Below are positions 3,716-64,000 of a stretch of 64,000 bases of DNA, piece after piece; within the stretch, counting starts at the first letter, position 1, and each line of letters begins with the position of its first letter. The notes under the pieces are model-generated. The model had not been told where the DNA came from, searched no databases, and saw only the letters and a program-made list of their open reading frames with translations. A program made the position numbers and the translations under genes. This DNA is from Escherichia coli (lineage in GTDB: Bacteria; Pseudomonadota; Gammaproteobacteria; Enterobacterales; Enterobacteriaceae), in assembly GCF_024223415.1 (NCBI RefSeq), contig NZ_CP100500.1. One strand, 5' to 3'.

Positions 3716-6700
3716 ATGAGTGAAGGACCAGGCGGGCCACAGGGAGCGACCGCAGGCGGTACGCTGGCAATGCGAATGCTTTCACAGCAGGCGATGGTCG
3801 CCAGCCAGATGAAACGGGCAGCCAACAACAAAGCCATTGCACAGATGTTGGCATCAAAAAAGTCTGGCCCCCCCGCCGCCAGGCTGGGCGATGAAATTCA
3901 GCACAAGAGTTTTTTGGGGGCGCTGGCAGGGGCCGTGCTGGGGGCGATAGTGACCATCGCAGAAGGTTGCCTGATTATGGCCGCCTGTGCCACCGGCCCT
4001 TATGCGCTGGTTCTGGTGCCTGCGCTGATGTATGCCAGCTATAAGGCGAGTGATTATGTGGAGGAGAAACAGAACCAGCTTGAATCATGGATAAACAGCT
4101 TTTGTGACACGGACGGCGCCATCAATACCGGTTCTGAAAACGTAAAAATTAACGGAAAGCCCGCTGCCAGGGCCGCCGTCACCCTTCCCTCTCCTCCCCC
4201 GCCTGAAGCAATACCCGAAGCCTCACAGGGGGAGCATTCATGGGGTGACATGGCCCTTGACCTGCTTGAATCGGCAGCGGAAAAAGCAGCGCCACTGGCT
4301 AAATCCTGGGGGAACGCTGTTATCACCCTGACGGACAGCAATGCCAGTTTTATGGATCGCGTCAGTGCAGGCGCATCGCTTCTGTTTCCCGCCGGTCCGG
4401 TATTAATGGAGTTTGCCACCATGGTGGGCGGGCGTGGCGAAATCAAAAAAGATGTGGATTTCCCGGAAGCCGGTGAGGACACGGCGCTCTGCGACAAGGA
4501 GAACAAACCACCGAGGATAGCCCAGGGCAGCAGCAACGTCTTTATCAACAATCAGCCTGCCGCGCGCAAGGGCGACAAACTGGAGTGCAGCGCGGCAATC
4601 GTGGAAGGTTCGCCGGACGTCTTTATTGGGGGTGAGCAGGTCACCTATCTGGATATCCAGCCGGAGTTCCCGCCATGGCAGAGAATGATCCTGGGAGGAA
4701 TAACGATAGCCAGCTATCTTCTGCCGCCAGCAGGACTGCTGGGAAAACTGGGGAATCTGGCGAAACTGGGCAAACTGGGAAACCTGCTGGGGAAAAGCGG
4801 GAAGCTGCTGGGCGCAAAACTCGGCGCGTTGCTGGGGAAAACAGGTAAGTCGTTAAAAAGTATTGCCAATAAAGTCATCAGATGGGTAACAGATCCTGTC
4901 GATCCGGTAACCGGCGCGTACTGCGACGAACGTACCGACTTCACCCTGGGCCAGACCCTCCCCCTCTCCTTCACCCGTTTCCACAGTTCTGTACTGCCAC
5001 TGCATGGCCTGACGGGCGTGGGCTGGAGCGACTCCTGGAGCGAATACGCCTGGGTGCGTGAACAGGGAAACCGGGTGGATATCATCAGCCTGGGAGCCAC
5101 GCTGAACTTCGCCTTCGACGGTGAAAGTGATACGGCGGTTAACCCGTATCACGCCCAGTACATTCTGCGCCGCTGCGACGATTACCTGGAGCTGTTCGAC
5201 AGGAATGCACTGAGCAGCCGCTTCTTTTATGACGCCTTTCCGGGAATGCGTCTGCGCCACCCGGTGACTGACGATACCAGCGATGACCGCCTGGCACACA
5301 GCCCCGCAGACCGGATGTACATGCTGGGCGGGATGAGCGACACCGCCAGCAACCGCATCACGTTTGAGCGCGACAGCCAGTACCGGATCACGGGTGTCAG
5401 TCACACCGACGGGATCCGGCTTAAACTGACGTACCACGCCAGCGGCTACCTGAAAGCCATTCACCGCACGGATAACGGCATACAGACGCTGGCGACCTAC
5501 GAACAGGATGCGCGGGGGCGGCTGACAGAAGCGGATGCGCGGCTGGACTACCACCTGTTTTATGAGTACGACGCTGCGGACCGGATCATCCGCTGGTCCG
5601 ATAACGACCAGACGTGGAGCCGTTTCACCTACGATGAACAGGGCCGGTGCGTGACCGTCACCGGGGCGGAGGGCTATTACAACGCCACGCTGGACTATGG
5701 TGACGGCTGCACCACCGTGACGGACGGCAAGGGCATTCACCGTTATTACTATGATCCTGACGGCAATATTCTGCGGGAAGAAGCGCCGGACGGCAGCACC
5801 ACCACGTATGAATGGGATGAATTCCATCACCTGCTGGCCCGCCACTCCCCTGCCAGGCGGGTGGAGAAATTTGAATACAACGCCGCACAGGGTCAGTTAA
5901 GCCGTTACACGGCGGCAGACGGCGCGGAGTGGCAGTACTGCTATGATGAGCGCGGCCTGCTCAGCAACATCACCGACCCTGCCGGGCAGACGTGGACGCA
6001 GCAGTGTGATGAACGCGGCCTGCCGGTAAGTCTGGTGTCGCCACAGGGCGAAGAGACCCGGCTGGCGTACACGCCGCAGGGGCTGCTGTCGGGGATATTC
6101 CGCCAGGATGAACGGCGTCTGGGCATAGAGTACGACCACCACAACCGGCCGGAAACACTCACCGACGTGATGGGCCGTGAACACCACACCGAATACAGCG
6201 GTCACGACCTGCCGGTGAAGATGCGCGGCCCCGGCGGTCAGTCAGTGCGGTTGCAGTGGCAGCAGCACCATAAACTGAGCGGCCTTGAGCGGGCAGGAAC
6301 CGGCGCAGAAGGATTCCGCTATGACCGCCACGGCAACCTGCTGGCGTACACGGACGGTAACGGCGTTGTCTGGACAATGGAATACGGCCCGTTCGATTTG
6401 CCGGTGGCGCGAACGGACGGTGAAGGCCACCGCTGGCAGTACCGCTACGATAAAGACACGCTGCAGCTCACAGAAGTCATTAACCCGCAGGGTGAGTCTT
6501 ATCTTTATATTCTGGACAACTGTGGCCGGGTGACGGAAGAACGTGACTGGGGCGGCGTGGTCTGGCGTTACCGTTATGACGCTGATGGCCTGTGTACCGC
6601 CAGGGTCAACGGCCTGGAGGAAACCATCCTCTACGGCCGGGACGCCGCAGGCCGCCTGGCAGAAGTCATCACGCCGGAAGGTAAAACGCAGTATGCGTAT

Positions 6701-8536
6701 GACAAATCCGGCAGGCTGACGGGTATCTTCAGCCCGGACGGCACATCACAGCGCACCGGCTACGACGAACGCGGGCGGGTGAATGTCACCACTCAGGGCC
6801 GACGGGCCATTGAATACCACTACCCCGACGAACATACCGTCATCCGCTGTATCCTGCCACCGGAAGATGAACGCGACAGACACCCCGATGAATCCCTGCT
6901 GAAAACCACGTACCGCTACAACGCAGCCGGAGAACTGACGGAGGTTATCCTGCCGGGGAATGAGACGCTGACGTTCAGCCGTGATGAGGCAGGACGTGAA
7001 GTGTTCCGGCACAGTAACCGGGGTTTTGCCTGTGAGCAGGGCTGGAATGCAGCCGGCCAGCTTACCAGCCAGCGCGCCGGACTTTTCCCGGAGGAAGCCA
7101 CGTGGGGCGGGCTGGTTCCGTCACTGGTGCGGGAGTACCGTTACGACAGCGCGGGTAATGTGTCAGGCGTCACCAGCCGGGAAGATTACGGACGGGAAAC
7201 ACGGCGGGAATACCGGCTGGACCGGAACGGCCAAGTCACGGCGGTGACAGCCTCAGGCACCGGGCTGGGCTATGGCGAAGGCGATGAGTCCTATGGCTAT
7301 GACAGCTGTGGCTACCTGAAGGCGCAGTCTGCGGGCAGGCACCGGATAAGTGAAGAGACTGACCAGTATGCCGGAGGCCACCGGCTGAAACAGGCCGGAA
7401 ACACGCAGTATGACTATGACGCCGCAGGCCGGATGGTCAGCCGGACAAAACACCGTGACGGCTACCGCCCGGAAACAGAGCGGTTCCGGTGGGACAGCCG
7501 GGACCAGCTGACCGGGTATTGCAGCGCACAGGGTGAGCTGTGGGAATACCGCCACGACGCCAGCGGCAGACGAACAGAGAAACGCTGCGACCGGAAGAAA
7601 ATCCGCTTCACGTATCTGTGGGACGGCGACAGTATTGCGGAAATCCGGGAATACCGCGATGATGAACTGTACAGCGTACGGCACCTGGTGTTTAACGGCT
7701 TTGAGCTGATAAGCCAGCAGTTCAGCCGGGTACGGCAGCCGCACCCGTCCGTGGCTCCGCAGTGGGTGACGCGGACGAATCATGCGGTGAGCGACCTGAC
7801 GGGCCGGCCGCTGATGCTCTTTAACAGTGAAGGTAAAACCGTCTGGCAGCCGGGACAGACCAGCCTGTGGGGGCTGGCACTCAGCCTGCCCGCAGACACA
7901 GACTACCCGGACCCGCGCGGGGAACTGGACCCGGAAGCCGACCCCGGCCTGCTGTATGCGGGACAGTGGCAGGATGCGGAATCCGGGCTGTGCTATAACC
8001 GGTTCCGGTATTACGATCCGGAAACCGGAATGTACCTGGTGAGTGATCCGCTGGGGTTGCAGGGAGGGGAGCAGACTTACCGGTATGTGCCTAATCCTTG
8101 TGGGTATGTTGATCCCTCTGGGTTGGCAATGACTTCGAAAATAGTCAATAAACTACCTTCTGCAAAAGATCTTGCTACAAAAAGGGCCAGTGAGTTATTA
8201 GCAAAGGCAACATCTAATACCCAGCGAAGTAAATTACCAAGGGCAGTTTCAGCTGTTGTTGATAAGAGAACTGGCAAAATATATTATGGAGAAAGTGGCT
8301 GGCCTCACCCAACAGAAATACATCCTACATTACAAAATAATATGCCATCAGCCAGTAAGGAGCGATGGGCAATCGAGAACTGTGCGGAATTTAAAGCTGT
8401 AAATGAAGCTTTGAAGGCAAATGCGAAAATTAGTGATCTTGAAGTTCATACAGTATTGGTAAAAACAGGCGAAGCTTTTCCAATGTGTAAGAATTGTCAA
8501 ATTTCAATATTTGGCGCTGTTGTTACAAGCGGGTGA
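3716..8536 (+). CDS. prePAAR/PAAR-domain Rhs polymorphic toxin (T6SS effector) with deaminase-like C-terminal domain
   Basis: 1606 aa; prePAAR motif AARLGDEIQH, hydrophobic helices, PAAR-like segments (NGKPAARAAV, NNQPAARKGD), long YD-repeat core, DPLGL demarcation motif, then ~140 aa divergent AT-rich tail containing CAE...PMCKNC. Confidence 0.9.
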   Translation: MSEGPGGPQGATAGGTLAMRMLSQQAMVASQMKRAANNKAIAQMLASKKSGPPAARLGDEIQHKSFLGALAGAVLGAIVTIAEGCLIMAACATGPYALVLVPALMYASYKASDYVEEKQNQLESWINSFCDTDGAINTGSENVKINGKPAARAAVTLPSPPPPEAIPEASQGEHSWGDMALDLLESAAEKAAPLAKSWGNAVITLTDSNASFMDRVSAGASLLFPAGPVLMEFATMVGGRGEIKKDVDFPEAGEDTALCDKENKPPRIAQGSSNVFINNQPAARKGDKLECSAAIVEGSPDVFIGGEQVTYLDIQPEFPPWQRMILGGITIASYLLPPAGLLGKLGNLAKLGKLGNLLGKSGKLLGAKLGALLGKTGKSLKSIANKVIRWVTDPVDPVTGAYCDERTDFTLGQTLPLSFTRFHSSVLPLHGLTGVGWSDSWSEYAWVREQGNRVDIISLGATLNFAFDGESDTAVNPYHAQYILRRCDDYLELFDRNALSSRFFYDAFPGMRLRHPVTDDTSDDRLAHSPADRMYMLGGMSDTASNRITFERDSQYRITGVSHTDGIRLKLTYHASGYLKAIHRTDNGIQTLATYEQDARGRLTEADARLDYHLFYEYDAADRIIRWSDNDQTWSRFTYDEQGRCVTVTGAEGYYNATLDYGDGCTTVTDGKGIHRYYYDPDGNILREEAPDGSTTTYEWDEFHHLLARHSPARRVEKFEYNAAQGQLSRYTAADGAEWQYCYDERGLLSNITDPAGQTWTQQCDERGLPVSLVSPQGEETRLAYTPQGLLSGIFRQDERRLGIEYDHHNRPETLTDVMGREHHTEYSGHDLPVKMRGPGGQSVRLQWQQHHKLSGLERAGTGAEGFRYDRHGNLLAYTDGNGVVWTMEYGPFDLPVARTDGEGHRWQYRYDKDTLQLTEVINPQGESYLYILDNCGRVTEERDWGGVVWRYRYDADGLCTARVNGLEETILYGRDAAGRLAEVITPEGKTQYAYDKSGRLTGIFSPDGTSQRTGYDERGRVNVTTQGRRAIEYHYPDEHTVIRCILPPEDERDRHPDESLLKTTYRYNAAGELTEVILPGNETLTFSRDEAGREVFRHSNRGFACEQGWNAAGQLTSQRAGLFPEEATWGGLVPSLVREYRYDSAGNVSGVTSREDYGRETRREYRLDRNGQVTAVTASGTGLGYGEGDESYGYDSCGYLKAQSAGRHRISEETDQYAGGHRLKQAGNTQYDYDAAGRMVSRTKHRDGYRPETERFRWDSRDQLTGYCSAQGELWEYRHDASGRRTEKRCDRKKIRFTYLWDGDSIAEIREYRDDELYSVRHLVFNGFELISQQFSRVRQPHPSVAPQWVTRTNHAVSDLTGRPLMLFNSEGKTVWQPGQTSLWGLALSLPADTDYPDPRGELDPEADPGLLYAGQWQDAESGLCYNRFRYYDPETGMYLVSDPLGLQGGEQTYRYVPNPCGYVDPSGLAMTSKIVNKLPSAKDLATKRASELLAKATSNTQRSKLPRAVSAVVDKRTGKIYYGESGWPHPTEIHPTLQNNMPSASKERWAIENCAEFKAVNEALKANAKISDLEVHTVLVKTGEAFPMCKNCQISIFGAVVTSG

Positions 8537-57038: not shown

Positions 57039-57532
57039 TAAGCCCCCACGTAATTCCCTGAGAGATACCACTCTTCACCTGATGCAGCCCGCTTACTGCT
57101 TTTCCGTAAACACCGTTCACGACGCGCCAGAAAATTGTTTCGTTCTGGCAGGGAGTGGCTTTCACGGAATGCCGCCATCCACACCGTTGCAGCACGACGG
57201 TATAAGCCCCTGGACTCCAGTTCTTCCGCCTGGCGGGTCAGGCACAAAATCACCCGCGGGTCGTTAGTGCCGACATAGAAATTGCGCACAGGTCTGGTTT
57301 CACGAACTGGTTGTGGTTCCGGATCCTGCGCTCTCTCAGTCAGGCGCGGGAAATGTCTGTGTGTATCTCCTTCACAACGGTGAGCCACACGCCCACTCTG
57401 ACGTAACTTGCTTGCTGACTGCAGAACGCGCTGCCGTGAGTAACCTGCAAAAGCATCCGCAATGTCTCCGGAAGTACAGCCCGGATGGGCTTCAATGAAT
57501 TTCTGAACGTCATTCAAAAGACTCATGCTCAC
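57038..57532 (-). CDS. hypothetical protein
   Basis: 164 aa; translationally coupled between replication gene and methyltransferase. Confidence 0.5.
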   Translation of the reverse strand: MSMSLLNDVQKFIEAHPGCTSGDIADAFAGYSRQRVLQSASKLRQSGRVAHRCEGDTHRHFPRLTERAQDPEPQPVRETRPVRNFYVGTNDPRVILCLTRQAEELESRGLYRRAATVWMAAFRESHSLPERNNFLARRERCLRKSSKRAASGEEWYLSGNYVGA

Positions 57533-58470
57533 CCCCTGAATCCTGCCGGGATCTGGCTGTAGTCCACATTGTCGTAACTGGCTTTGAAGTACGGGTCTTC
57601 GCGTTTTTCTGTGTACGTGCTGACGGACGGCGATAAGCGCAGGGAAAGCTCATCCCATTTTTCCCGCAGCTTCGACGGGCTGAGCACGTTACGGCACCAG
57701 AACGGATCGCGGCTGACGCGGCTGTAAATCTCGCAGATTTGTTTGTGAGTACGACCATCCTGCACACACATCAGGCGAATTTCGTTTGCCCAGGCTGTCC
57801 AGTTCGGTTCTTTGGGACGAACCACCTCGCCGTCACATTCGGCAGCCTGCTCGTACAGGGCGATGATTTTTTTCCAGAGCCACTGTGCGCAGGTCAAATC
57901 ATCCTGCGTCCCCCACTGGCGTTTTTTAGGGCTGAATACAACCGCATCAGGATGGCGAGTTAAAAAATCCTGTTCAGCCGTCTGCGTGTCCGGTTGCGAA
58001 GAGTCCGGACGAGAAGGTTTTTTATCTGACGGATCATGTTTTGATTTTACTGACGGATCCCCGCCAGATTCTGACGGGTGAAAACCCGCTTTTTTGCCAG
58101 ATTTCGACGCATCAAATTTTGACGGGTCAGATTTTGATGCGTCAGATTTTGACGGGTCAGAATCTGACAGTTGAGAAAATGCCGCTGCCTGAAGCTTCGC
58201 AACGTTAAGCTGATAAACATTCGACGCATTGCGGTTACCCTGGCGACGCGCCTTACGCGTTAACCAGCCTTCTGCTTCCAGCCGTGCGATAGCCGTTCTG
58301 ACGGTACTCATCCCCGCGCCAATCTGGCGGGCAATGGTTTCAATCGATGGCCAGCACACACCTTCGTCATTACTGAAATCAGCCAGGCGGGCCATAATTG
58401 CCACGCTGGATAATTTCATGCCTGACGCTGCGCAACCATCCCATACATAGCCGGTTAATTTAGTGCTCAT
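57529..58470 (-). CDS. phage replication initiator (HTH N-terminal domain, O-like)
   Basis: 313 aa; N-terminal replication-protein HTH; central low-complexity SKSD repeat coinciding with DNA iterons. Confidence 0.75.
   Translation of the reverse strand: MSTKLTGYVWDGCAASGMKLSSVAIMARLADFSNDEGVCWPSIETIARQIGAGMSTVRTAIARLEAEGWLTRKARRQGNRNASNVYQLNVAKLQAAAFSQLSDSDPSKSDASKSDPSKFDASKSGKKAGFHPSESGGDPSVKSKHDPSDKKPSRPDSSQPDTQTAEQDFLTRHPDAVVFSPKKRQWGTQDDLTCAQWLWKKIIALYEQAAECDGEVVRPKEPNWTAWANEIRLMCVQDGRTHKQICEIYSRVSRDPFWCRNVLSPSKLREKWDELSLRLSPSVSTYTEKREDPYFKASYDNVDYSQIPAGFRG
58020..58170 (-). repeat. iteron-like direct repeats (candidate replication origin) inside the replication gene
   Basis: Recurring (C/T)TGACGG(A/G)TC with ~15-bp period, e.g. 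tcagattttgacgggtcagattttgatgcgtcagattttgacgggtcag. Confidence 0.5.
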
Positions 58471-59610: not shown

Positions 59611-59707
59611 ACGCCCTCCAAACTAAGTTTTGTTAGATGCTAATTACAAATCTATCTTTGGTCAATAAAAACTAAGATTACTTAGCAATTAAAGAAATGG
59701 TGCTCCT
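59611..59707. promoter_or_regulatory. divergent cro/cI control region with two operator-like 14-bp palindromes
   Basis: CTAAGttttGTTAG at 59623-59636 and perfect CTAAGattaCTTAG at 59672-59685 between divergent starts. Confidence 0.55.
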
Positions 59708-60334
59708 ATGGAAACGGTTGGTCAGCGTATAAAAGCTCTGAGAAGAGTTACCAGAACGTCCCAGAAAGAATTGGGTAAATTTTGTGGAGTAAGCGACGTT
59801 GCTGTGGGGTACTGGGAGAAAGACATCAATACCCCTGGTGGGGAGGCACTTTCGAAATTAGCGAAGTTCTTCAATACGTCAATAGATTACATTCTTTATG
59901 GTGCTGAGTTTGAAGGCAAACTCGTCACAAACATGCGCAGAGTTCCTGTAATATCGTGGGTTCAGGCTGGGCAGTTTACTGAGTGCAGGGCAGCAGAAGT
60001 GTTTAGTGAAGTGGACAAGTGGGTAGATACATCATTAAAGGTTGGTGATAACTCATTTGCATTAGAGGTTAAAGGTGACTCCATGACTAACCCTAATGGC
60101 CTCCCAACAATACCAGAAGGCGCAACAGTGATTGTAGATCCAGATGCAGAACCTCGTCATGGAAAAATAGTCATCGCTCGACTTGATGGAACAAACGAAG
60201 CTACAGTAAAAAAATTAGTCATCGATGGCCCTCAAAAGTTTTTAGTGCCATTAAATCCTCGGTATCCCAACATCCCTATCAATGGTAATTGCCTTATCAT
60301 TGGTGTAGTCAAAGGAGTTCAATACGAACTCTAA
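59708..60334 (+). CDS. CI-type repressor (HTH + S24 LexA-like peptidase domain)
   Basis: 208 aa; N-terminal HTH (SQKELGKFCGVSDVAVGYWE); C-terminal catalytic Ser/Lys context (VKGDSMTNP ... KKLV). Confidence 0.9.
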   Translation: METVGQRIKALRRVTRTSQKELGKFCGVSDVAVGYWEKDINTPGGEALSKLAKFFNTSIDYILYGAEFEGKLVTNMRRVPVISWVQAGQFTECRAAEVFSEVDKWVDTSLKVGDNSFALEVKGDSMTNPNGLPTIPEGATVIVDPDAEPRHGKIVIARLDGTNEATVKKLVIDGPQKFLVPLNPRYPNIPINGNCLIIGVVKGVQYEL

Positions 60335-60413
60335 GGCCTCTCTTCTCTAACTAAGGCACCGAACTAAGAAAAGTTTGGTGTTTTCTCTTGCCATAATAAC
60401 TAAGTTAAGTTAG
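60331..60413. promoter_or_regulatory. cluster of CTAAG operator-like motifs just downstream of cI
   Basis: CTAAG at 60331, 60351, 60364 and palindrome CTAAGttaaGTTAG at 60400-60413, same half-site as the cro/cI region. Confidence 0.4.
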
Positions 60414-60564
60414 ATTTTATATCAAAGATAACGAACAGGCAGGACGCCCACGAAGTAGCCGCCTGGGGCATATAAAGTCCAGGATGATTCGTTAGCAACA
60501 AAAAAGCGCCCTACAGGACGCTTAGCTCTTTAACAATCTGGGTATCATCCAACCAATGCAAGAT

Positions 60565-61086
60565 TTAAGGAATCCAAGGCGAATTCAGATCTCGCCCCAA
60601 CTCACGTAATGATCTTGGTCGTTCGTACATCGGATTTTTTTCCATAAGAAATTTATTTTCACAGTGAAGGCAACGGCTTGTAAGAAAATGAGAAGTTTTA
60701 CCTACTGGAAGCGGATGAAGTATCGATTTTATATTTTTGGAATAACAAAGTGGGCACAGATGCACAGTTATTTCTTTTCCACTCACAATTTCATTTTTAG
60801 AGTAAACAAAAGCACCAGAGTCAAGCTGATCAAGGACATATCCTTCTACCTTGGCACAAAAATCTTCAAACTCTGCAATTTTTGCTTTGAGATGCATCAC
60901 CTCTTCATCACGAAGGCGGATCGCATCGCCAAGAGAGAAGCATTCTGCCTGAAGCGTGATTAGTTTGTTCTGGAGTTCAATGGTTGCAGCTTTAACTTCT
61001 GCATCCGTTTTCGCGTCATTAATAACCTTAGCAAGACCGGCAGTCTCCTTTATAGCGGCCATAGCCGCAGACAGTTCAGCTATCAC
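60565..61086 (-). CDS. hypothetical coiled-coil / zinc-ribbon protein beside the immunity region
   Basis: 173 aa; N-terminal coiled-coil-like region; C-terminal CPLC-x24-CLHC; convergent with cI; antisense frame is low-complexity. Confidence 0.6.
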   Translation of the reverse strand: MIAELSAAMAAIKETAGLAKVINDAKTDAEVKAATIELQNKLITLQAECFSLGDAIRLRDEEVMHLKAKIAEFEDFCAKVEGYVLDQLDSGAFVYSKNEIVSGKEITVHLCPLCYSKNIKSILHPLPVGKTSHFLTSRCLHCENKFLMEKNPMYERPRSLRELGRDLNSPWIP

Positions 61087-61373
61087 GTTGAATACTCAGC
61101 TAGTTGTTGGGGATATCCAGATTAACCAAATCCTTGTTGTTGGGGAATAACTAGGTCCACCTCGCCTGATGTGGCTAAAAGCAGGCACATAACAGCTAAG
61201 TATTTTCAACCAGAGAGAATCCTTAGCGTTGTGGTGAATGCGGCTCAGCGCACGCGGGTTAAGGTTGAGGCTGACAGTCGACCTTCTGTGGATACCCACC
61301 CGCCTGGTGTGCAACCTTCGCCAGGCACCGGGAGGCACCCGGCACCACAACTTTATGCTGTGTGTAGTCCTGG

Positions 61374-61418
61374 CGGTACCAGCTTGTACCCTTGCTTCCG
61401 GCTGGTACCGTCCTTTTT
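61374..61418 (+). terminator. strong stem-loop plus U run in the leftward-operon leader
   Basis: Perfect 10-bp stem cggtaccagc / gctggtaccg with 17-nt loop, then tccTTTTT. Confidence 0.5.
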
Positions 61419-61555
61419 ACAAAACAGAGAAGAGCATCACCGGACGACGGGCTCATAACCCAATCCATCCGGGCGGCAGTCACCGCAGGTGTTCTTCTCT
61501 GTTTTGTGGAGAAACTAACCGACCTTGCAGGGTCGATATGATGAGGAGCAGCAAA

Positions 61556-61918
61556 ATGGCTAGCGAACGCAGTACTGATGTGCAGGCATTTATCGGGGAG
61601 CTGGACGGCGGCGTATTTGAAACCAAAATCGGCGCAGTTCTCAGTGAAGTCGCTTCCGGTGTGATGAACACGAAAACCAAAGGTAAGGTCTCGCTCAACC
61701 TAGAAATCGAACCGTTTGATGAGAACCGAGTGAAAATCAAACACAAACTCTCATATGTTCGCCCGACTAACCGCGGGAAAATTTCCGAAGAAGACACCAC
61801 CGAAACGCCGATGTATGTCAATCGCGGTGGTCGCCTGACTATTCTGCAGGAAGACCAGGGACAATTACTGACTCTTGCCGGTGAGCCTGACGGAAAACTC
61901 CGCGCAGCAGGTCGTTAA
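61556..61918 (+). CDS. hypothetical early protein (YfdP-like, unverified)
   Basis: 121 aa from ATG with RBS gaggag; the upstream in-frame extension to 61238 is Arg-rich and judged non-coding. Confidence 0.55.
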   Translation: MASERSTDVQAFIGELDGGVFETKIGAVLSEVASGVMNTKTKGKVSLNLEIEPFDENRVKIKHKLSYVRPTNRGKISEEDTTETPMYVNRGGRLTILQEDQGQLLTLAGEPDGKLRAAGR

Positions 61919-61983
61919 TATCGTTCTTAATAAACTGATTATTTATCTCATCACTGAATATCTTTATATAGTGAGGACTTATT

Positions 61984-62808
61984 ATGTCTCAGAACTTAGA
62001 CGCAACCGCAATTAATCAAATCCATGCCCTTATTTCTGCTCAGGGTGTTAATGAAATTATCAGTAAGATTGGTGCCGATGCTGTGGCATTGCCTGAGAAT
62101 TTCCGCATTCATGATCTGGAAAAACTTAATTTAAATCGCTTCCGTTTCCGTGGTGCGCTTTCCACTGCCAGCATCGATGACTTTACCCGTTATTCTAAAG
62201 ATCTTGCAGATGAAGGCACCCGCTGCTTTATCGATGCCGATAATATGCGAGCCGTCAGTGTGCTTAACCTGGGTACTATTGATGAACCAGGTCACGCAGA
62301 TAACACCGCCACTCTCAAACTGAAAAAGACAGCACCGTTCTCTGCCCTGTTGTCTGTTAACGGCGAGCGTAACTCCCAGAAGTCACTGGCAGAATGGATT
62401 GAAGACTGGGCCGACTACCTTGTGGGCTTTGATGCTAATGGTGACGCCATTCAGGCAACCAAAGCGGCTGCGGCGATCCGTAAAATCACAATTGAAGCGA
62501 ACCAGACCGCTGATTTTGAAGATAATGACTTCAGCGGCAAACGCTCCCTGATGGAGTCTGTCGAAGCGAAGACCAAAGACATTATGCCAGTGGCATTTGA
62601 ATTTAAATGCGTTCCGTTTGAAGGTCTGAAAGAACGTCCGTTTAAATTACGCCTCAGCATTATCACTGGCGATCGTCCTGTACTGGTACTACGCATTATT
62701 CAGCTGGAAGCAGTGCAGGAGGAAATGGCTAACGAATTTCGTGATCTGCTTGTTGAGAAGTTCAAAGACAGCAAAGTAGAAACCTTTATTGGTACTTTCA
62801 CCGCCTGA
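61984..62808 (+). CDS. DUF2303-family protein (YfdQ-like)
   Basis: 274 aa; resembles CPS-53 prophage YfdQ by length and composition; followed by yfdR-like gene. Confidence 0.6.
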
Positions 62809-62936
62809 TTTCATTACTGCAAATGCCCCTGCGGGGGCATTTATGGAAACGTAATTGACTCAATATTCGCCTGATGGCGAGGTTTTTCTTTAACCAAATT
62901 TCAGCGCGGTGCAGCGCATATAACGTGGAGAACAAA

Positions 62937-63473
62937 ATGTCATTTATTAAAACTTTTTCCGGGAAGCATTTTTATTATGACAGGATAAATAAAGACAACA
63001 TCGATATTAACGATATCGCGGTTTCCCTTTCAAATATCTGTCGCTTTGCAGGACATCTTTCACACTTCTACAGCGTCGCCCAACATGCGGTGCTTTGCAG
63101 CCAGCTGGTACCGCAGGAATTTGCTTTTGAAGCGTTAATGCATGATGCAACAGAAGCTTATTGTCAGGACATCCCCGCGCCACTGAAACGCCTTCTTCCT
63201 GACTATAAACGGATGGAAGAAAAAATAGACGCCGTAATCCGTGAGAAATACGGGTTACCCCCGGTTATGAGCACGCCTGTGAAATATGCCGATCTCATCA
63301 TGCTGGCAACCGAACGCCGCGATCTCGGGCTTGATGATGGCTCTTTCTGGCCTGTACTGGAAGGCATCCCGGCAACAGAGATGTTCAACGTGATTCCACT
63401 GGCACCGGGCCATGCCTACGGGATGTTTATGGAACGTTTTAACGAGTTATCGGAGTTACGCAAATGCGCATGA
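62937..63473 (+). CDS. HD-domain phosphohydrolase (YfdR-like 5'-deoxynucleotidase)
   Basis: Start at internal ATG (MSFIKTFSGKHFYYDR); HD-motif residues (HD at MHDATEAY, downstream His/Asp); track ORF 62874..63473. Confidence 0.65.
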   Translation: MSFIKTFSGKHFYYDRINKDNIDINDIAVSLSNICRFAGHLSHFYSVAQHAVLCSQLVPQEFAFEALMHDATEAYCQDIPAPLKRLLPDYKRMEEKIDAVIREKYGLPPVMSTPVKYADLIMLATERRDLGLDDGSFWPVLEGIPATEMFNVIPLAPGHAYGMFMERFNELSELRKCA

Positions 63474-63742
63474 ATGTTTTCGAAATGGAAGGGTTTCTTC
63501 GTGGGAGATGTGTACCGCGAGATCTGAAAGTGAATGAAACAGATGCTGAATACCTAGTGCGCAAATTCGATGCGCTTGAAGCTAAATGTGCAGCACAGGA
63601 AAACAAAGCAATACCAGTGTCAACTGAACTGCCACCAGCAAATGAAAGTGTTTTGTTATTCGATGCTAACGGAGAAGGCTGGCTAATTGGCTGGTGTTCT
63701 CTCTGGTACACCTGGGGACAAAAAGAAACCGGAGAATGGTAG
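63464..63742 (+). CDS. hypothetical early protein
   Basis: 92 aa; start overlaps yfdR-like stop. Confidence 0.45.
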   Translation: MRMNVFEMEGFLRGRCVPRDLKVNETDAEYLVRKFDALEAKCAAQENKAIPVSTELPPANESVLLFDANGEGWLIGWCSLWYTWGQKETGEW

Positions 63743-63825
63743 TGGACATTTCAGGTCGGGGACCTTGAAAACGTCAATATCACTCACTGGGCAGTAATGC
63801 CAAAAGCACCGGAGGCTGGAGCATA

Positions 63826-64000
63826 ATGACCACATTTACCAATAAAGGACTGATTAAAGAAATCAAAGAACGAATCAGCAGCCTAGATGTTCGAGACGAT
63901 ATTGAGCGCCGTGCTTATGAAATCGCACTCGTATCTCTGGAAGTAGAGCCAGATGAACGCGAAGCCTATGAATTATTCATGGAAAAGCGTTTCGGTGACT
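63826..64000 (+). CDS. hypothetical early protein, 5' part (continues beyond window)
   Basis: ATG at 63826 after RBS ggaggctggagcATAATG; frame open to window end (MTTFTNKGLIKEIKERISS...). Confidence 0.4.
   Translation, partial: MTTFTNKGLIKEIKERISSLDVRDDIERRAYEIALVSLEVEPDEREAYELFMEKRFGD

Follow-up and report, generated by a model that had tools for sequence, protein, structure and literature searches.

The yfdQ–yfdR region of an apparently complete lambda-like prophage in Escherichia coli: a conserved YfdP–YfdQ module and a separately distributed gene for a probable HD-domain nucleotidase

Our study examined positions 61984 to 63473 of a 64 000 nt stretch of Escherichia coli contig NZ_CP100500.1 (assembly GCF_024223415.1; this whole stretch is referred to as the window), where the plus-strand genes yfdQ and yfdR lie next to each other. 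We put the probability at roughly 85 % that this region is an intact early-left yfdP, yfdQ and yfdR of the CPS-53/SfV type, after which come an amber-truncated yfdS and then yfdT, that YfdR is a deoxynucleoside monophosphate (dNMP) phosphohydrolase which also binds DnaA, and that YfdP and YfdQ form the fixed module. The initial annotation of this DNA had described a DUF2303 protein paired with an HD-domain nucleotidase in a leftward operon, with a possible part in countering host defence; the nucleotidase and the operon were retained, the pairing and the defence idea were not, and a published role of YfdR in binding DnaA had been overlooked. Gene identity, motifs, gene order and distribution were computed in our study, and the enzyme activity, the DnaA binding and the inhibition of initiation are taken from published papers; the role in the phage and the control by the repressor are what we infer.

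Identity of yfdQ and yfdR and conservation of the HD motif

The product of yfdQ matched Pfam PF10065 with an E-value of 7.9e-93 and a score of 311 bits (cut-off 26.6), YfdQ residues 7–272 covering positions 2–269 of the 269 in the model, which makes it a full-length member of the family. It also matched phrog_210 (E 1.8e-119) and was identical to K-12 YfdQ at 272 of 274 positions (99 %) without a gap. The 178-residue product of yfdR was likewise aligned gap-free to K-12 YfdR, of which it is the orthologue (174/178 identical, 98 %), and it matched phrog_318, ‘deoxyribonucleoside 5' monophosphate phosphatase’, with an E-value of 1.5e-111. Given this degree of identity to the CPS-53 proteins of K-12, the two genes are, on sequence, alleles of the named K-12 genes rather than look-alikes, which substantiates and sharpens the earlier description of them as YfdQ/YfdR-like.

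Both genes are intact, already known and very common. Of 5426 complete E. coli genomes, 3033 contained the 2.5 kb block from 61500 to 64000 at 95–99 % identity, annotated there as yfdP, yfdQ, yfdR and yfdT, and near-identical copies elsewhere carry the annotation ‘yfdR: 5'-deoxynucleotidase’. Phages SfV and SfIV and Stx2c-converting phages carry the yfdP-Q-R-S-T block as well. As genes that are named, annotated, partly characterized and carried by over half of the complete E. coli genomes, they therefore matter little as such, but their annotation can be fixed with confidence, with regard both to the start of yfdR at 62937 and to the intact HD motif. The 178-codon coding sequence is enclosed by a longer plus-strand open reading frame (ORF) of 199 amino acids (62874–63473). 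The internal ATG at 62937 is preceded by a GGAG Shine–Dalgarno sequence, and its equivalent is the annotated yfdR start in the prophage of strain HMDUC-17, in SfV and in K-12; the ATG at 62874 sits within a terminator-like hairpin (62866–62881). The true start is likely to be 62937, and the 21 extra codons from 62874 are probably untranslated.

The H...HD...D signature that defines HD-domain phosphohydrolases was present and conserved in YfdR. Residues H50, H69, D70, E73, D78 and D119 were invariant in 14 YfdR-family sequences with identities down to 56 %, as were R36 and F37, and this conservation upholds the original call of an HD domain. H69-D70, E73, D78 and D119 of YfdR aligned with H68-D69, E72, D77 and D137 of YfbR; the first histidine, H50, was placed opposite YfbR H33 by eye, as MAFFT misaligned that segment. 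The MAFFT alignment of YfdR and YfbR reached 21 % identity over its full length, and the alignable stretch around the HD motif comprised about 40 residues by BLAST and 37 columns by hhalign. YfbR (PF12917; NCBIfam PRK03826) resembles YfdR in the HD motif segment and in the reported class of reaction, but differs in that YfdR has a much lower reported affinity for nucleotides and binds DnaA. The closest solved structure by sequence was that of Atu1052 from Agrobacterium (PDB 2gz4; E 1.1e-13 over YfdR residues 21–175), a structural-genomics HD protein with which the H50, H69-D70 and D119 motif blocks all aligned. Unlike yfdR, the Atu1052 gene is chromosomal and not of phage origin, and the structure, deposited as a ‘hypothetical protein’, adds a fold but no activity data.

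YfdP and YfdQ as a module and YfdR as a separate cassette

The initial annotation had treated the DUF2303 protein and the HD protein as a functional pair, which the comparison of loci did not support. The DUF2303 family, of which roughly 1450 clusters were found at 50 % identity, was sampled for gene order in two sets of loci. The diverse set consisted of DUF2303 neighbourhoods from Salmonella, Escherichia, Thalassomonas, Vibrio (four), Xanthomonas and Psychrobacter phages and from metagenome contigs, with YfdQ identities down to 30–40 %, and the close set consisted of 80 IMG/VR loci with a 99–100 % identical YfdQ. All 19 of the diverse loci had a YfdP homologue upstream of yfdQ, either immediately adjacent or separated from it by one small ORF, with phmmer E-values against YfdP of 1e-10 to 1e-43 and with some of the genes labelled PF27127:YfdP in precomputed Pfam matches; yfdP was also upstream of yfdQ in 80/80 close loci. 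By contrast, only 3 of the 13 distinct diverse loci with enough downstream DNA had a YfdR-type gene after yfdQ (SfV, ST64B and one metagenome contig). The remaining diverse loci carried a gene for a single-stranded DNA-binding protein (SSB), a DUF1351 protein or a small unknown protein in that place, often with recombination genes nearby. Among the close loci, yfdR was downstream of yfdQ in 76 of 79 and absent from the directly downstream position in three.

The same picture was obtained from a tblastn search of a collection of 50 697 phage records. There were 181 records with YfdQ and 180 with YfdP, and the taxon profiles of the two resemble each other, both including all 26 records of Stx2a-converting phages. 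For YfdR there were 324 records, the profile of which is different and includes phages of Bacillus (35), Caulobacter (32), Rhizobium (23) and Stenotrophomonas (19) and none of the Stx2a phages. Because YfdP was constant upstream (19/19 and 80/80), YfdR followed in 3/13 and the taxon profiles differed, YfdP–YfdQ is a conserved two-gene module and YfdR an independent, swappable downstream cassette. The pair therefore has to be redrawn, with YfdP–YfdQ as the conserved unit and YfdR as a nucleotide-metabolism cassette that is common in many unrelated phages. According to a 2025 Genome Research paper, the trio of yfdP, yfdQ and a yfbR-like gene is common in lambdoid early-left operons, the first two being of unknown function.

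The spacer between yfdQ and yfdR is 128 nt long, and mosaic relatives without yfdR diverge in gene content at this point. It contains a perfect 9 bp hairpin (62821–62842) and the terminator-like hairpin with a T-run at 62866–62881. In one IMG/VR locus with a 99 % identical YfdQ (L021), yfdR is replaced by an AT-rich ORF of 277 amino acids (5963–6796) with a hydrophobic N-terminus. This ORF has the look of a moron, an accessory gene inserted where yfdQ and yfdR would meet.

Beyond enterobacterial lambdoid prophages, the YfdP–YfdQ module extends to Vibrio, Xanthomonas, Psychrobacter and Thalassomonas phages, and it often lies beside gam, recT/erf/rad52, exonuclease or SSB genes, as in phage TL-2011c (L006), Vibrio phage 66E30.1 (L009), Xanthomonas phage JUN5 (L011) and loci L012 and L099. 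Among the loci with YfdP–YfdQ, no recognizable recombination module was present in other phages such as SfV, ST64B and LLS. A DUF2303 protein of Burkholderia phage JC1, gp10, has been detected in virions purified on caesium chloride, and its authors speculate about an association with DNA.

An AlphaFold2 model of YfdQ, based on 62 diverse homologues, had a mean predicted local distance difference test (pLDDT) score of 91.7 and a predicted template modelling score of 0.82. The corresponding model of YfdP had a pLDDT of 82 and consisted of one long helix and a three-strand sheet. Neither model had a fold match among solved structures in fold libraries that did not contain PDB 9o7m (entries to April 2026), and a sequence search of the PDB with YfdP gave no match. 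YfdP was also considered as a duplicated subdomain of YfdQ and this was rejected, the two profiles being unrelated (hhalign probability 0.2 %). PDB 9o7m, ‘YfdQ Protein’, is a DUF2303 protein like the YfdQ described here, although from a different organism, and is 39 % identical to it over 246 residues (E 9e-45). The entry holds 36 chains of a single sequence and, since it is a homologue, this suggests that YfdQ builds a large homo-oligomer. A literature search found no paper on 9o7m or on PF10065. We tentatively raise the possibility that YfdP–YfdQ is an undescribed phage machine for DNA metabolism or DNA protection, or a counter-defence assembly, while regarding this as a suggestion that has the odds against it.

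Probable function of YfdR

In K-12, yfdQ-yfdR-yfdS-yfdT was isolated as a multicopy suppressor of the over-initiation of hda-185 (Noguchi and Katayama, PMC4776307). Suppression required yfdQR plus either yfdS or yfdT, and multicopy yfdQRS or yfdQRT inhibits initiation at oriC (PMC4776307). The same study reported that purified YfdR binds DnaA (domain I), that DnaA Phe46 is important for this binding, that YfdR competes moderately with DiaA and DnaB, and that extracts oversupplied with YfdQRST inhibit oriC replication in vitro (PMC4776307). As summarized there, YfdR is, according to Zimmerman et al. 2008, structurally homologous to YfbR but binds nucleotides with much lower affinity; it is reported to be a low-affinity 5'-deoxynucleotidase.

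The requirement for both yfdQ and yfdR, together with yfdS or yfdT, in the suppression of hda-185, and their adjacency in 76/79 close loci of the E. coli type, might be taken to mean that YfdQ and YfdR are an obligate two-protein system. We consider this improbable. Pull-downs suggest that neither YfdR nor DnaA is bound with high affinity by YfdQ, YfdS or YfdT (PMC4776307), YfdR is not beside yfdQ in 10 of the 13 distinct diverse loci or in the three loci with 99–100 % identical YfdQ, and the two families differ in their distribution across phage taxa.

Our preferred explanation is that YfdR, as a small metal-dependent HD phosphohydrolase, would take the 5' phosphate off dNMPs, with low affinity in vitro, and that the E. 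coli protein would in addition bind DnaA domain I at Phe46, thereby competing with DiaA and DnaB. When abundant, and together with YfdQ and YfdS or YfdT, it would hold back initiation at oriC. After induction the phage may use YfdR to remodel the deoxynucleotide pool, to damp initiation of the host chromosome, or both. YfdQ is not the partner of YfdR; its gene forms a fixed two-gene module with upstream yfdP. The pre-early deoxynucleoside-5'-monophosphatase of phage T5, Dmp, is likewise an early phage enzyme, converting dNMPs to deoxynucleosides according to its record annotation, but it is an analogue only; homology to YfdR was rejected, as the hhalign probability was 0.3 % and Dmp belongs to phrog_415 and not to phrog_318. 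The P protein of lambda is argued to help its phage by damping host initiation, and YfdR may do the same.

It is conceivable, if rather doubtful, that the role of YfdR is regulatory, as a phage takeover factor that blocks oriC with YfdQ and YfdS/T through DnaA domain I, its HD site being vestigial or secondary. The direct, Phe46-dependent binding of DnaA, the competition with DiaA and DnaB, and the inhibition of initiation both in vivo and in extracts (PMC4776307) argue for such a role. However, all metal-binding and catalytic residues were invariant in the family sample, and the phages that carry homologues include those of Bacillus, Caulobacter, Rhizobium and Stenotrophomonas, hosts far from E. 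coli, so that the function they share is more likely to be chemistry. The published effects, moreover, needed multicopy expression, and two reservations listed below, on the deletion and on overexpression, bear on a regulatory role as well. As the catalytic residues are invariant, the family spans phages of very different hosts and the activity has been published, chemistry would be the conserved function, and the most probable activity of YfdR is that of a metal-dependent dNMP phosphatase.

The initial annotation had further proposed that the enzyme might counter nucleotide-based defence signalling. YfdR would then act against defence by breaking down the nucleotide second messengers, or the toxic nucleotide analogues, that host immunity produces. 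The idea is plausible in a general way only, the gene being an early one of a phage and the HD-domain hydrolase superfamily being able to hydrolyse phosphoesters of various kinds. PADLOC-DB models, however, gave no match at E ≤0.01 with YfdP, YfdQ, YfdR, YfdS, YfdT or the minus-strand ORF upstream of yfdP, and membership of a defence system was rejected on these zero matches. The closest characterized relatives are dNMP nucleotidases, the titles and abstracts of the literature that mentions YfdR draw no link to defence, and the gene has been kept in K-12, in a cryptic prophage, as well as in over half of the complete E. coli genomes. With neither a PADLOC match nor support found in the literature, the proposal was abandoned, and we regard it as very improbable.

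Several points weigh against our reading of YfdR as a dNMP phosphohydrolase that binds DnaA and is encoded in an intact early-left block. YfdR scored 24.1 bits with the Pfam YfbR-like model (PF12917), just under its gathering score of 25.9, and 19.7 bits with the NCBIfam YfbR equivalog (NF003009), far under the cut-off of 122. Because it falls short of both curated thresholds, YfdR is only a distant relative of YfbR, and its assignment as a member of the YfbR family or as an orthologue was rejected. Deletion of yfdQRST caused no initiation phenotype, and the authors grant that the overexpression effect might be an artefact (PMC4776307). It was the K-12 protein that was assayed for enzyme activity and DnaA binding, and the allele described here differs from it at four residues, none of them in the motif. 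The amber codon in yfdS means that the published QRS combination is not intact in this prophage, although QRT may be. Finally, the operon structure of yfdPQRST is a prediction from the sequence.

Prophage context and neighbouring features

The window apparently carries a complete lambda-like (lambdoid) prophage. Starting at about 24.6 kb, the minus strand bears tail, head and lysis-sized ORFs, and a cI-like repressor gene stands upstream of the yfd block (Table 1). The genes yfdP-Q-R-S-T are oriented in the direction of cI, opposite to the cro-, cII- and O-like genes, and in near-identical prophages xis and int come after the yfd block. The 99.9 % identical prophage of strain HMDUC-17 continues with the integrase, tRNA-Thr and proA, the counterpart of which would lie here just past the end of the window. 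The genes thus run in the cI/int direction, which agrees with the leftward placement given to them initially, and the term ‘early-left operon’ is consistent with the sequence. In K-12, the operon is listed as yfdPQ (PMC9181523).

Table 1. Features of the yfd region and its control region in the window
Feature	Position	Strand	Description and basis
cI-like S24 repressor	59708–60334	+	Faces minus-strand cro-, cII- and O-like genes
Candidate early-left promoter, TTGCCA-17-TAGATT	60388–60416	+	Promoter-like site overlapping operator-like repeat AACTAAGTTAAGTTAG at 60397–60413
STnc100-like RNA element, yfdP untranslated leader	61198–61421	+	Rfam RF02076
yfdP (120 amino acids), conserved upstream partner of yfdQ	61556–61918	+	phrog_204; annotated yfdP in near-identical records
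yfdQ (274 amino acids), DUF2303 family	61984–62808	+	Pfam PF10065, phrog_210, identity to K-12 YfdQ
Structured yfdQ–yfdR spacer, two hairpins	62821–62881	+	Sequence reading; prediction of terminator-like site
yfdR (178 amino acids), predicted HD-domain 5'-deoxynucleotidase and DnaA-binding protein	62937–63473	+	K-12 identity, phrog_318, PDB 2gz4, motif residues, literature
yfdS-like (DUF551), amber-truncated, 92 of 120 codons	63464–63742	+	CAG to TAG at 63740–63742
5' part of yfdT, ends at window edge	63826–64000	+	Coordinates from 99.9 % identical record and alignment

The yfdP-yfdQ-yfdR-yfdS-yfdT genes of K-12 CPS-53 (KplE1) and orf32-orf28 of Shigella phage SfV are the same genes in the same order and with the same orientation relative to the immunity and integration genes, and the SfV DNA is 96.8 % identical to the block over 2.5 kb. 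The region described here differs in that the block lies in an apparently complete lambda-like prophage with another immunity region, a minus-strand ORF with a zinc-ribbon-like end stands between cI and yfdP, and yfdS carries an amber codon. The attachment site, judged by the near-identical record, is probably tRNA-Thr next to proA and not argW.

A partly palindromic 17 nt repeat (AACTAAGTT....TTAG) was found in three copies (59620–59636, 59669–59685 and 60397–60413). Two of these lie in the cro–cI intergenic region and the third lies just downstream of cI, overlapping the promoter-like site in Table 1. The three repeats are candidate repressor operators (OR- and OL-like), and we infer from the arrangement of repeat and promoter what looks like a repressor-controlled leftward promoter.

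Upstream of yfdP there is a non-coding leader of about 470 nt. The match of its STnc100-like element to RF02076 covered the whole model but was below threshold (score 42.4 bits, gathering score 47; E 6e-07). An imperfect 25 nt inverted repeat (61419–61443/61483–61507) follows this element, and a GAGGAG Shine–Dalgarno sequence precedes the ATG of yfdP.

Between the repressor gene and yfdP, a minus-strand ORF of 173 amino acids (60565–61086) matched phrog_1244 (unknown function) and has a strong terminator of its own at 60523–60504. Cysteine pairs near its C-terminus resemble a zinc ribbon, and a metagenome locus (L097) has a similar gene of 180 amino acids in the same slot, with weak or faint Pfam matches to zinc ribbons. 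The ORF is placed like exclusion genes that are expressed in the lysogen, yet it is among the products that had no PADLOC match.

The protein of the O-like gene (57529–58470, minus strand) contains a repeated peptide, SDPSKSDASKSDPSKFDASKS (about 58040–58230), and ORFs that overlap this gene carry matching repeated peptides, which suggests iteron-type DNA repeats of a phage origin. The K-12 remnant of the O-like region is the yfdO/yfdP spacer, the TCAGATTTTGC repeats of which have been reported as binding sites of SrsR (YgfI) (PMC9181523).

The amber codon of yfdS, which lies within 63464–63826, was seen in comparison with both strain HMDUC-17 and K-12. The intact yfdS homologue matched DUF551, and phrog_583 was covered by the truncated product at positions 1–92 of 120. 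Two further transitions were found relative to strain HMDUC-17, one silent (63556, G to A) and one that changes arginine to cysteine (63695, C to T); these two and the amber codon together explain why the identity to the closest genome is 99.9 %.

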